The notes under the pieces are model-generated. The model searched no databases. It saw nothing but the letters and a program-made list of their open reading frames with translations, and was not told where the DNA came from. Made by a program: the position numbers and the translations under genes. Below are positions 2,221 through 45,805 of a stretch of 64,000 nt of DNA, piece by piece; the first letter of the stretch is position 1, and each line of letters begins with the position of its first letter. Source of the DNA: an uncultured Clostridia bacterium (GTDB lineage: Bacteria; Bacillota; Clostridia; Christensenellales; UBA1242). Location: assembly GCA_934754475.1 (NCBI GenBank), contig CAKVHV010000001.1, positions 420,228-484,227 of the forward strand, in the 5' to 3' direction.

Positions 2221-4341
2221 ATGACTAGTACATTTAGATTAACTAGAGCTGAATTTAAAAAGATATTCAAACGAGCTAGTGTTTATATCATGGCATTACT
2301 CTTACTTGTTGCAGTACTTATTTCAATGTACTTATTTAGTCCCATTGAAAAAGTCGATAACTTGGTTAGTTATGGCGAAAATTTAACAGTCGAAAATTAC
2401 TATAATAATTTCTTTTCGTCCGACCTACCCCAAAGCAAACAAGCTATAGACAAGTCTTTTGATGACACCAACTCAATTTTAAATTATTATGAGATTAATC
2501 TTGATAGAGACACAAAACTTAATCAAAATTATATTGATGTTGTAAATTCATTTGATGAACTAAAAAATACAAATGAACCAACTATCAAAGAACAAAAATA
2601 CACCAATCTCAAAACTAATTTGCAGTCAATGCTCAATAATATTTCTAATTTTGATGACCTTGAAATTTATGAGTATGTTGAGTTTATGAAAAATGGAACA
2701 ACTTATATCAAAGACGGAAATACATTCAAAACTTACAAATTATCTGATTTGTATTTGGATAATTATACTAGTAGTACAAAGTCTTTGCTAAATAAAACAA
2801 CAACTTTTAATAGCACTCAAATAATCGAAACATACGAAACAAATGATTTCAAAAAATTATTGCAAAACGAAATAAATGCTAGTATTGATTATATTCCACG
2901 AACAATTTATATTTTGTCAAAAGATATAAAAGACCAATATGATTATTTCAATCAAGAATATGCCAAAGGTTCAAGCAATATAGATAGATGCGAAATAACC
3001 CGAAAAAATTTACTTAATAGTTGCAAAAATTTAAAAGATTATCTAAGTATCGTTTTTGATAATGATTTCCCAATAGTTCTTATAAACAAACAACTAAAAA
3101 GCGAAATATTTAATCAACTAGATAATGCTATAGAAAATCTTACTTCGGGATTTACAGGAACTACCAAAACAATTTCACACTACAAAACACTAAATGATAA
3201 TTTAACAAGCATCAATCTTCCTAATTACTTTAAATCCACTTTTGATGTATCAAAAAACAATGTTTTTCAAGTAAAACTCAAAACCACTACTCTCGAAGAA
3301 TTTAATAAAGTTAAACAAAAAGTTGAAAGCAATAGAGAAGAACTTATCAAAGTTATCAAAAAATATCGTAGTGACGAAAGCATACGAAATATTCAAATCA
3401 AAATAACCGATTATAATTTGCTTGCAAATAGTTACAAGACATACTTTATTGATACAATTCTATTAAATCTAAGCAAAAATTATCGAAGTACCGACTTTGC
3501 TAATTTATATAATTATCAACTAAACGAATTTAATAGTTATCAAACTCAAGAGAGAATTACTGCAAACAAATATTATATCAATAATAACATTTATTCTGAT
3601 TCGTTCTTGACAAATTTCTCGTTTGAACAAAATAGCGGAAAAACAACTAATGCTATGGACTTTATGTACTTTTCAATGGAAATCTGTACAGTACTTATTA
3701 CAATATTTGCCATGATGTTAGTATGTAATTTAATTACACAAGAAACAGAAAGCGGAACGATTAAATTATTGCTTACAAGACCATACAAACGTTCAAAAAT
3801 TATTACTGCCAAATTATTTGCTACAATATTCTTTGTAATTAGTTTTGTAGTATTCTCAGCACTAATTAGTTTTGTGGGTGGATACTTTGTATTTGGACTT
3901 GATAATACAAATATTCTTATGATATTCAATTCAACTACAGCCTGTGTAATTTCTCCACTACTACTAATGTTTATTAATATTTTAAGTTTGACACTTGATA
4001 TAATTTTCTATGTAATAATTGCCTTAATGATTTCAATAATATTCAAAAATTATGCCGGGTCAATATCTTTCTGCTTTGTAATACTTTTGGTTACTTATAC
4101 CCTTAATATTTTGTTTGCTGGCTCATTCTGGTATTCACTACTTCCGGGAATGAATTTGCACTTGTTTAAATACTTTGGAAATTCGTTTGCTTCAATCAAT
4201 GAAAACTCAGTACTCAAAAATATTCTCATAACCCCTATTCAAAGTTCAATGAATATTGTATTTAGTTTTTTAATTACTTGTGCATACTCACTTATCTCAC
4301 TTGCAATTTCATATTCTGTATTTAACAAACGTGATTTCTAA
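2221..4341 (+). CDS. ABC-2 family permease with a ~440-aa extracytoplasmic insert between TM1 and the C-terminal TM bundle
   Basis: AAGGAG RBS. Starts 12 nt after the ATPase stop. N-terminal TM (VYIMALLLLVAVLISMYLF), a long N/D/K/Y-rich loop, then about 5 TM helices (aa ~480-700) typical of ABC-2 permeases. Confidence 0.7.
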   Translation: MTSTFRLTRAEFKKIFKRASVYIMALLLLVAVLISMYLFSPIEKVDNLVSYGENLTVENYYNNFFSSDLPQSKQAIDKSFDDTNSILNYYEINLDRDTKLNQNYIDVVNSFDELKNTNEPTIKEQKYTNLKTNLQSMLNNISNFDDLEIYEYVEFMKNGTTYIKDGNTFKTYKLSDLYLDNYTSSTKSLLNKTTTFNSTQIIETYETNDFKKLLQNEINASIDYIPRTIYILSKDIKDQYDYFNQEYAKGSSNIDRCEITRKNLLNSCKNLKDYLSIVFDNDFPIVLINKQLKSEIFNQLDNAIENLTSGFTGTTKTISHYKTLNDNLTSINLPNYFKSTFDVSKNNVFQVKLKTTTLEEFNKVKQKVESNREELIKVIKKYRSDESIRNIQIKITDYNLLANSYKTYFIDTILLNLSKNYRSTDFANLYNYQLNEFNSYQTQERITANKYYINNNIYSDSFLTNFSFEQNSGKTTNAMDFMYFSMEICTVLITIFAMMLVCNLITQETESGTIKLLLTRPYKRSKIITAKLFATIFFVISFVVFSALISFVGGYFVFGLDNTNILMIFNSTTACVISPLLLMFINILSLTLDIIFYVIIALMISIIFKNYAGSISFCFVILLVTYTLNILFAGSFWYSLLPGMNLHLFKYFGNSFASINENSVLKNILITPIQSSMNIVFSFLITCAYSLISLAISYSVFNKRDF

Positions 4342-32719: not shown

Positions 32720-32896
32720 AAACATTCAAATAAATTTATTTTTTGCCAAGGGTGGTAGGAAGTATGCTTTGCATACCCAACAAAAACCCTTGGTTTTTTG
32801 TTGCTCGAACCGGTGACGTTCGCTTATTTGTGCTAGCACACGCTCACTAATTTGATTACTTCGTAATCTGCACCGCGTCGCAACCACCCCTGCCAA
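32720..32896 (+). other. 177-bp G+C-enriched tRNA-Trp trailer bounded by a 14-bp direct repeat of the tRNA 3' end; contains an antisense copy of the tRNA 3' strand and nested hairpins
   Basis: accacccctgccaa occurs at 32707-32720 and again at 32883-32896. gggtggtagga (32750-60) is the reverse complement of tRNA nt 32703-13. There is a ccaaggg..cccttgg stem plus T6, with an inner gtatgc-ttt-gcatac hairpin. Confidence 0.5.
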
Positions 32897-45338: not shown

Positions 45339-45498
45339 ATCATTCTCCTATAATACTTAAAACAAAAAGCAATTAACTAATTTTGCTTTAATTATTTTAA
45401 CACCTATAACATTGCAAAAAATTAGAACATAACTCACATAGTTTGTTTTTTTGTAGAAAAAATTTTTGTTAGATAATTTAGCAATTGAAATTATTTAC

Positions 45499-45549
45499 AA
45501 AAAAAAGACCTTATCATGAAGTGATTTAGTTTATCACTACATGATAAGG
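45499..45549 (-). terminator. Rho-independent terminator (minus strand) downstream of the structured-RNA candidate
   Basis: 17-bp stem with one mismatch (45509-25 / 45533-49), followed on the minus strand by T8 (plus-strand A-run 45499-45506). Confidence 0.7.
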
Positions 45550-45550
45550 C

Positions 45551-45691
45551 ACTTAACAATATTAATATTGAATTAGTATAGTAACCATATTTGTCGGGTG
45601 GCAGTGCAACTGACGGGTCCCCGACTACCCTTGATGGTTCATATGGCGTTAGCCATTGCATGCACTAGCATGCAGAATCCATCCCAAGCAC
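45551..45691. ncRNA. Unassigned G+C-enriched structured RNA candidate bracketed by two terminators
   Basis: Markedly more G+C than its surroundings. Hairpins tgcatgc-acta-gcatgca (45656-73), atggc-gtta-gccat (45643-56) and gtcggg..cccgac (45593-98 / 45619-24), plus aaccat/atggtt. No ORF. I could not match it to SRP, 6S, tmRNA or a riboswitch by eye. Confidence 0.35.
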
Positions 45692-45720
45692 AAAAAAATG
45701 ACCTTTGATAGGTCATTTTT
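45692..45720. terminator. Bidirectional terminator immediately after tRNA-Tyr
   Basis: Perfect 9-bp stem aaatgacct/aggtcattt with an A-run upstream and a T-run downstream. It abuts the tRNA-Tyr CCA end at 45721. Confidence 0.75.
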
Positions 45721-45805
45721 TGGTGGGAGGGGATGGATTCGAACCATCGAAGTCTGAGACGACGGATTTACAGTCCGTTGCATTTGACCGCTCTGCAACC
45801 CTCCC
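45721..45805 (-). tRNA. tRNA-Tyr (anticodon GTA), long variable arm, CCA encoded
   Basis: Reverse complement is GGGAGGGTTGCAGAGCGGTCAAATGCAACGGACTGTAAATCCGTCGTCTCAGACTTCGATGGTTCGAATCCATCCCCTCCCACCA. Confidence 0.92.

Follow-up and report, generated by a model that had tools for sequence, protein, structure and literature searches.

In the genome of an uncultured Clostridia bacterium (GenBank assembly GCA_934754475.1, contig CAKVHV010000001.1), a structured, G+C-rich intergenic segment lies directly behind a tRNA operon, at positions 45551 to 45691 of the 64,000-nucleotide (nt) stretch of DNA analysed here, which we call the window. A reading of the sequence alone had proposed that this segment encodes a small RNA (sRNA) or a processed read-through product of the operon. 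Comparison with related genomes indicates that the segment is a member of a multi-copy family of repeat units, each 150-200 nt long, and not a unique sRNA gene. The copy in the window looks like a decayed, 3'-truncated unit of the kind described in Escherichia coli as tRNA-linked repeats (TLRs). On balance, and with only moderate confidence, we interpret the family as recombination-driven and largely neutral or selfish, and the window copy as a passively transcribed trailer lying between two terminators, termed T1 and T2 below.

The repeat nature of the segment emerges from several types of search. BLAST against its own genome (G000, 1.36 Mb) places the central 41 nt of the segment at four further sites, and the BLASTN comparison with relatives that the sequence-only reading had advised uncovers related copies that stand in tandem with a period of 183-211 nt. 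A covariance model (CM) that represents the core together with flanking sequence, and for which 41 other copies but not the window copy were used, matches 45583-45633 on the minus strand with 61.7 bits (E = 2.6e-19). This is the sole match of the model in the 64-kb window, and a score of this kind places the segment far from a chance G+C-rich patch.

Approximately 10 copies of the core are present in G000, all except one of which follow a tRNA. A strict core pattern yields 65 matches in 18 of the 41 genomes of the genus and none when the pattern is reversed as a control; most of these matches either follow a same-strand tRNA, 92-135 nt from its 3' end, or belong to arrays whose period is 175-215 nt. 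Units occur singly or in tandem, on the tRNA strand, behind tRNAs of at least 15 anticodon types (the hosts comprise Tyr, Arg-ACG/UCG, Glu-CUC/UUC, Ile, Leu-GAG/UAG/CAA, Asn, Thr, three Ser, Trp and Gln), and arrays of two to at least four units are seen in G000 (Arg, Leu-UAG), G025 (Tyr), G012 (Arg) and others. Within the bacterial family, the CM finds the core in 10 of 121 sampled genomes, corresponding to 6 of 58 genera, and the copies there are likewise tRNA-linked. At E <= 1e-4 the model finds no copy in 380 genomes of other families in the order; the strict pattern has a single match in the same 380 genomes (G056), at the rate of the reversed control and unconvincing. Pattern scans of genome and metagenome contigs are dominated by chance matches from G+C-rich genomes. 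Among the metagenome matches listed, the genuine low-G+C matches with enough upstream sequence are all tRNA-linked, three further low-G+C matches being too close to a contig start for linkage to be judged.

Architecture of the full unit

Inspection of full copies on the tRNA strand reveals a constant order of parts. Behind the terminator, the acceptor 3' strand and the T-stem 3' strand recur in inverted form, followed by two variable hairpins (hpA and hpB) and then by the T-stem 5' strand with the variable region, likewise inverted; a short loop often comes next, and with it the T-stem 5' strand in direct orientation. The linker (A/G)AGGUA, or some variant, then joins this part to the core, S-UCGGG-RACYC-G[stem-loop]C-A-CCCGA-S. 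The unit closes with a further hairpin, hpD, which ends in AUUGAC, AUAGAC or AAUGC, and with a direct copy of the tRNA from C56 to CCA, after which the terminator appears again. This direct copy is most often 21 nt long (C56 to CCA), such that full units show the feature by which TLRs are recognized, a 3' end that repeats the tRNA's 3' end. Exact inverted words, 7-14 nt long, cover nt 8-22 and nt 20-33 if one numbers from the tRNA 3' end. Inverted and direct copies alike break at one position of the T-loop, between 55 and 56. Terminator copies are identical inside one genome and different between genomes, a distribution that fits concerted evolution or recent duplication. In some units (L046, L047, L068) the terminal tRNA sequence corresponds to the 3' end of another tRNA.

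Several copies depart from this plan in other ways. At 32720-32896 (plus strand) the window holds a tRNA-Trp followed by a unit of the same layout, with an inverted arm CCAAGGGTGGTAGGA, hairpins, CTCGAACC and a direct copy ACCACCCCTGCCA; its core is a different one, without the UCGGG...CCCGA motif, and its opposite strand folds at -56.7 as compared to -45.0 kcal/mol. Two tandem units of another TLR-like subtype occupy the start of a second contig of the same genome (C2:1-360, L259), each with a terminator, a decayed inverted arm GCTCCTTTCGGACACTC, hairpins, and an uninterrupted copy of T-arm and acceptor GGGTTCGAGTCCCCGAGGGAGCACCA; at this locus ARAGORN finds no tRNA and Rfam gives no match. 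A core-bearing unit at C2:288790-288960 has no upstream tRNA, only a fragment ending GACTCCGCCA. A nearly identical unit on a gut metagenome contig (L341) lies directly behind a tRNA-Ser(CGA), and the G000 copy therefore looks either displaced or tRNA-less by loss. In a further metagenome contig (L319, ~2530-2690, minus strand), three head-to-tail repeats of the core and hpD alone, with a period of 58 nt, follow a tRNA-Leu(UAA), and these copies are not separated by tRNA-derived arms.

The copy in the window

The window copy is a single unit that begins 29 nt past tRNA-Tyr on the same strand. Its parts and its immediate surroundings, in the order in which they would be read from the operon, are as follows.

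46307-45721, minus strand: tRNA operon Pro-Met-Asp-Phe-Thr-Tyr (ARAGORN, Rfam).
45721-45805, minus strand: tRNA-Tyr(GUA), last gene of the operon, whose 3' end supplies the template for the element's arms (ARAGORN; Rfam tRNA, 59.3 bits).
45692-45720, either strand: predicted terminator T1, composed of A7, a 7-bp stem (45698-45704 with 45710-45716) and a T-run; symmetric (fold).
45675-45691, minus strand: inverted (antisense) copy of the T-loop 3' half, the T-stem 3' strand and the start of the acceptor 3' strand of tRNA-Tyr, GUGCUUGGGAUGGAUUC.
45657-45674, minus strand: hairpin hpA, UGCAUGC-UAGU-GCAUGCA, the first of the two hairpins that interrupt the inverted T-loop (fold).
45643-45656, minus strand: hairpin hpB, AUGGC-UAAC-GCCAU (fold), retained in orthologues.
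45626-45642, minus strand: AUGAACCAUC, in which the 5' half of the T-loop and the 5' strand of the T-stem are copied in inverted form, and after it the linker AAGGGUA (sequence).
45593-45625, minus strand: core hairpin, GUCGGG-GACCC-G UCAGU UGC ACUGC C-A-CCCGAC (pattern, covariation, CM).
45585-45592, minus strand: remnant of the hpD 5' arm, AAAUAUGG, at which homology to full orthologues stops.
45551-45584, either strand: A+T-rich, genome-specific filler from the truncation point to T2, absent from G025 and G013.
45499-45550, minus strand: predicted terminator T2, a 17-bp stem and U8 (fold -22.1 kcal/mol, z -7.3).

Within the inverted arm, the 11-nt GGGAUGGAUUC (45675-45685) is the exact complement of 45730-45740 in tRNA-Tyr, and an inverted block of this type is present in every full copy; a chance alignment to MIR6459 in Rfam displays the pairing across T1. 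The hpA hairpin is retained, with other sequence, in the orthologues of G013 and G062. GAACCAUC-NNAGGUAG is conserved across four tRNA-Tyr orthologues, and the linker AAGGGUA forms part of model R1. The core hairpin consists of an outer stem of 6-7 bp, a 5-nt asymmetric bulge, and an inner stem in which the second pair is usually a U.C mismatch.

Most of what the sequence-only reading had described is found in the segment. G+C content stands at 0.42-0.50 for ~110 nt past tRNA-Tyr (100-nt windows, 45550-45699), against 0.20-0.27 in flanking intergenic DNA. All four of the hairpins that it had picked out by eye are present in the sequence, at 45657-45674, 45643-45656 and 45593-45625 (the last with gtcggg/cccgac around cagt/actg), and the two terminators between which it had placed the segment, beside the tRNA operon, both fold as hairpins. 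The G+C-rich structured part proper spans 45583-45691, bounded by T1 and T2, and it folds better than dinucleotide shuffles on either strand, at z -2.5 (minus strand) and -2.8 (plus strand), a 150-nt version giving z -2.6 for the plus-strand fold. T1 folds at -13.0 kcal/mol on the minus strand and -13.5 kcal/mol on the plus strand (z -5.3 and -4.4), and as modelled could act bidirectionally; it is the center of a decayed long palindrome made by the tRNA 3' end and the inverted arm. T2 is probably the original terminator of the tRNA operon. A simple terminator scan flagged neither of the two.

The claim that the segment holds no open reading frame (ORF) needs amending, in that a 56-aa ORF with an ATG start runs through 45491-45661 on the minus strand. 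Because this frame crosses T2, has no Pfam match, is not conserved, and extends at its 3' half into DNA that orthologous loci lack, it is very unlikely to be a gene. That no known RNA could be recognized has now been borne out by covariance search: Rfam 15 returns nothing for the segment at gathering score and nothing even at E <= 10, and known families (SRP, 6S, tmRNA, RNase P, riboswitches, RtT, YrlA) match neither the segment nor full units. On the plus strand of the filler, a promoter scan marks a sigma-70-like site with 10 of 12 matches (TTAACA at 45553-45558, an 18-nt spacer, TATAGT at 45577-45582), to which we attach little weight because such matches are common here (14 in 1.6 kb, versus 6.7 +/- 2.8 in shuffles).

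Truncation of the unit and the tRNA-Tyr locus in relatives

Alignment to relatives shows where the window copy has been cut. BLAST similarity of the window to G025 and G013 ends at 45582-45585, within the 5' arm of hpD, and the full units of these genomes (L034 in G025; L035/L091 in G013) run on to ...CAUAUUGAC-GAAUCGCAUCCCAUCCACCA. The window copy has neither the 3' arm of hpD nor the 21 nt that would directly repeat the tRNA 3' end, CCA included, and it also lacks a second T1. Cut at 45585 and with its direct copy gone, the window copy no longer repeats the 3' end of its tRNA, and it is accordingly a defective TLR member, a truncated relic. The syntenic site of G025 carries two full units ending GAAUCGCAUCCCAUCCACCA and a third unit cut inside hpA, behind which only the 3' half of T2 (..CUAUGAUAAG-U9) is retained.

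The tRNA-Tyr locus varies across the genus. Full units stand behind tRNA-Tyr in G013 and G062, and about 19 genomes have a clean empty site there, including G032, with 97% identity in the tRNA region. In G014, G005 and G028 the core of the unit is reduced to a plain hairpin, and G020 and G024 contain units of another type. The inverted acceptor arm has decayed in three of the four Tyr orthologues (G000, G013 and G062). Between G000 and G025 the unit is 91% identical and the neighboring intergenic DNA 87%. Judged from such comparisons, the element appears to be under weak constraint.

Covariation of the core

Pairing in the core is preserved across the copies in the face of sequence change. Among the cells of the alignment that represent core pairs, 92.1% hold standard pairs as compared to 77.2% in shuffles, and 68 cells have changed on both sides, against 17.4 +/- 3.4 in shuffles, a number that none of 500 shuffles reaches; slid controls are only 34-48% paired. 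The closing pair is C-G, U-A or G-C in 18, 12 and 11 sequences, respectively, and inner pairs take up to four Watson-Crick types. The hairpins hpA, hpB and hpD keep their form with differing sequences, both between loci and between orthologues. These patterns indicate that the structure of the core is maintained, although the covariation amounts to fewer independent events than cells because it partly tracks subfamilies. One-sided (G-U) changes in the core number zero, and this total lack of G-U intermediates would also fit copying at the DNA level that keeps the arms complementary.

Enzymes and links to mobile elements

Candidate enzymes do not follow the distribution of the units. Reverse transcriptase (PF00078) is absent from G000, G025, G010, G012, G018 and G001, all of them unit-rich, and is encoded by 5 of the 18 genomes that carry the element and by 5 of the 23 that do not; with none in G000 and no correlation across the genus, an origin dependent on reverse transcription (retron-like, tRNA-primed) was rejected. 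The Y1 transposase (PF01797) is likewise absent in G000. It occurs in 9 of 41 genomes of the genus, uncorrelated with the element, and the genes in question belong to ordinary copies of the insertion sequence IS200 whose ends are unrelated to the element. We therefore discarded the notion of a repetitive extragenic palindrome (REP) with its RAYT transposase, or of a palindrome-associated transposable element (PATE) of IS200/IS605. No integrase adjoins a unit at ~90 inspected loci, and the units are without a conserved ORF. We dismissed a palindromic 'rolling-hairpin' organization, which would require the inverted arm's two hairpins to be core plus hpD copied in reverse and since diverged, because the similarity is not above that in shuffles, and likewise a phage origin, the sole two pattern matches in viral contigs being chance ones in G+C-rich coding DNA. 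A protein-linked autonomous version was found neither in the viral scan nor among the metagenome matches listed.

An IS200 left-end-type hairpin, ACCCCCAGATAGTCTGGGGG, lies just past the post-unit terminator at L091 (G013, ~60 nt after the tRNA-Tyr unit) and at L043 (G025, after the Ile unit), suggesting that IS200 insertions or remnants adjoin these two loci.

Proposed origin and expression of the unit

How might such a family arise and persist? If it is, as we favor, a recombination-driven and largely neutral or selfish one, the direct repeats of ~50 bp formed by the tRNA 3' end and terminator would make each locus recombinogenic. Unequal crossing-over would grow and shrink arrays, homogenize the copies in a genome, and could excise an element so as to leave an empty site, and recombination in the conserved T-arm region would carry modules between tRNA loci. 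An illegitimate deletion would have taken the distal third of the window's single unit. Polymerase passing the weak T1 would then transcribe that unit as a trailer of the Pro-Met-Asp-Phe-Thr-Tyr operon and halt at the strong T2, as in E. coli TLRs. Because the ends of full units form an acceptor/T-type helix with a 3' CCA, such units would be trimmed in the fashion of a tRNA; the window copy has lost that 3' signal. In our view these repeats perpetuate themselves or are neutral, and do not constitute a regulator with a dedicated target.

A number of observations sit poorly with this interpretation. Simple unequal crossing-over fails to explain new inverted and direct copies that both match each tRNA, and the strong covariation of the core, together with retention in six genera, suggests either some selection or a copying mechanism. 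The strand-related features also diverge, which justifies the caution about strand in the sequence-only reading. On the side of the tRNA strand are co-orientation with the tRNA in all cases, terminators that are often one-directional in the tRNA sense, the encoded CCA, G.U pairs in the closing helix of some units, and the precedent of E. coli. In folds restricted to Watson-Crick pairs, however, A.C mismatches on the tRNA strand outnumber G.U by 65:14. The loops read GAA, AAA, GUA, GGA or GNRA on the opposite strand, where 9 of 43 tetraloops are GNRA, versus 0 on the tRNA strand; and the unpaired bases, with G at 0.11 and C at 0.29 on the tRNA strand, take an RNA-like composition on the opposite one (A 0.32, G 0.29, U 0.28, C 0.11). 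The opposite strand also has the more stable fold in 42 of 47 units, but we do not rely on this minimum free energy (MFE) test because, although right for the tRNAs of G000, it is wrong for three of four E. coli TLR units.

The nearest rival, which we consider unlikely, is a functional sRNA of the tRNA strand that is co-transcribed with the tRNA, cut out by RNase P and 3' trimming by virtue of an acceptor/T minihelix with CCA, and active in trans, either as a decoy of tRNA ends or through C/U-rich loops (UCCC, CUCC, UUCC) like the anti-Shine-Dalgarno loops of Firmicute sRNAs such as RsaE/RoxS; the window copy would then be a defective or altered allele that ends at T2. Part of the original sRNA proposal is supported, in that a position between a weak T1 and a strong T2, the tRNA strand, and the E. 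coli precedent suit a read-through product, whereas a truncated member of a repeat family found behind many tRNAs is not a stand-alone sRNA gene. The tRNA-like CCA end of full copies, the covarying core and hairpins, the retention in six genera, the pyrimidine-rich loops, and the precedents of RttR and RrA/B/F (the latter as described in the TLR passages of PMC8144298) all speak for such an RNA. Yet occupancy is patchy, with clean empty sites and replaced cores at one locus; the closing helix has decayed in orthologues; conservation does not rise above that of neighboring intergenic DNA; the covarying stems lack G-U and the tRNA strand has the A.C excess noted above; and copies read by eye have no promoter of their own, the promoter scan having covered the window. 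An RNA of the opposite strand, or a single-stranded DNA (ssDNA) form of it, would account for the 65:14 A.C excess across the family, the GNRA/GNA loops and the RNA-typical unpaired composition. In the window this would be a plus-strand sRNA of ~130 nt, convergent with the tRNA operon, that starts ~7 nt past TATAGT (near 45590), ends at the T-run of T1 (45716-45720), and has a T-arm-like 3' part with an expanded loop; the promoter-like site at 45553-45582, the symmetry of T1 and the plus-strand fold (z -2.6 to -2.8) agree with it. We nonetheless hold it to be very unlikely: the promoter-like site, of a type common in A+T-rich DNA, lies in genome-unique DNA created by the truncation, full units read by eye show no promoter in that orientation, post-unit terminators often work in the tRNA direction only, G.U pairs appear on the tRNA strand of some closing helices, and the MFE test that favors the opposite strand misassigns E. 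coli TLRs.

Flanking direct repeats of the tRNA 3' end, the 55/56 junction common to direct and inverted copies, and patchy occupancy raise the further idea that the units are mini integrative elements, or attachment-site (att) scars, of a trans-acting tyrosine integrase that crosses over in the T-loop, with the direct copy as att core. This mechanism would oblige a single integrase to recognize no fewer than 15 distinct tRNA sequences as att sites, an inverted copy and a core-split direct copy are not Campbell-type products, the repeat includes a whole terminator, and no integrase is linked to any unit; we assign this idea a low probability, on a par with that of the opposite-strand RNA. There is next to no chance that the segment is a cis-regulatory leader of the downstream minus-strand genes at 45338-43860, which encode a STAS protein (102 aa), a HATPase_c_2 kinase (141 aa) and a sigma-70 factor (240 aa) and constitute a partner-switching operon of the SpoIIAA/SpoIIAB/SigF type in this 1.36-Mb genome. 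The segment does lie upstream of this operon on the same strand; however, the strong T2 intervenes, the family follows tRNAs whatever is downstream, and many genomes of the genus have no element behind tRNA-Tyr, and the leader was rejected on the grounds of T2 and the family distribution. A bolder proposal, which strikes us as quite unlikely though not so much so as an integrase or opposite-strand origin, is that TLR-type modules, both those of Clostridia and those of E. coli, are widespread, unrecognized, protein-less elements that retarget themselves. If so, the folded core, as ssDNA or RNA, would enter behind any tRNA at the near-palindromic T-loop sequence TT^CGA, and templated copying would regenerate the 3' part of that tRNA in both orientations, inverted and direct; the Watson-Crick-only covariation and the strand-asymmetric loops would then follow from the templated copying step.

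Comparison with known systems

The E. coli TLRs have been known since 1978 without an accepted origin or function. Finding the same plan in a distant phylum means that this plan is not an enterobacterial oddity, the host group in this case being small-genome gut Clostridia of one family. A covarying core, dozens of copies, at least 15 tRNAs, and both empty and decayed sites make up comparative material on the origin of the unit and on RNA function. In practical terms, where a G+C-rich 'orphan sRNA' candidate adjoins a tRNA operon in an A+T-rich genome, TLR architecture is the first thing to look for.

Two well-known groups of elements share some properties with the family. Like the islands and prophages that tyrosine integrases insert at the T-loop of tRNA genes, and like derivatives of these without an integrase, the units have a tRNA 3' direct repeat, an intact tRNA, a T-loop junction and a patchy presence; they differ in being 150-200 nt long and geneless, in their extra inverted copy, in their use of many tRNAs, in their tandem arrangement, and in having the terminator in the repeat. 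Like REP/BIME-RAYT systems, PATEs, and miniature inverted-repeat transposable elements (MITEs; Correia, RUP, BOX), they are short, hairpin-rich, multi-copy, intergenic and protein-less, and a GTAG/GTAC-like motif immediately 5' of the core palindrome is reminiscent of REPs. In contrast to REPs, PATEs and MITEs, the units are confined to tRNA 3' ends, and their arms derive from the local tRNA instead of being fixed terminal repeats.

The correspondence with E. coli TLRs runs deeper. The passages on TLRs in PMC8144298, which cite Egan and Landy 1978 and Rudd 1999, count 22 such repeats, distributed over 10 loci, whose final 18-19 nt are the same as those closing the tRNA or rRNA upstream, and give their function as unknown; three TLRs of rrn operons, RrA/B/F, are described there as made by read-through of a first terminator and as lying between two terminators. 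In E. coli K-12 (NC_000913, 1286600-1287640; L248), the tRNA-Tyr 3' end is represented twice in each 178-nt unit of tyrT/tyrV, by a 19-nt direct copy AATCCTTCCCCCACCACCA and, upstream of the hairpins, by a 10-nt inverted one GGGGAAGGAT. This inverted copy is our own observation and does not appear in the TLR passages of PMC8144298. RttR, to which the tyrT/tyrV repeats give rise, is annotated on the tRNA strand behind tyrV in NC_000913 (Rfam RtT, RF00391). Sequence and CM comparisons of the Clostridia family with RtT RF00391 and with all of Rfam 15 reveal no similarity, nine full-unit loci matching only at true tRNAs.

A locus of the TLR kind has from one to five units in tandem. In both groups, units stand directly behind a tRNA on the same strand, singly or in short tandem arrays, and end in an exact copy of the last ~19-21 nt of the tRNA including CCA; both have an upstream inverted copy able to pair with the direct copy, with several hairpins between; and the rrn members lie between two terminators, as does the window copy. 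The differences concern detail and host. The E. coli TLRs belong to Enterobacteria and the present units to Clostridia, in another phylum; the Clostridia family has its own core hairpin, common to the units of at least 15 tRNAs; its inverted copy is longer, extending as far as the variable region and the T-stem 5' strand, with two hairpins dividing it exactly in the T-loop; the whole terminator is repeated with each unit; and hairpin loops that are purine-rich on the tRNA strand in E. coli TLRs are purine-rich on the opposite strand in the Clostridia family. As the tyrT/tyrV TLRs share the layout of inverted plus direct copy, the Clostridia family can be viewed as a variant of the TLR kind, and, judging from this shared architecture, we think that the E. 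coli TLRs are the closest known kind.

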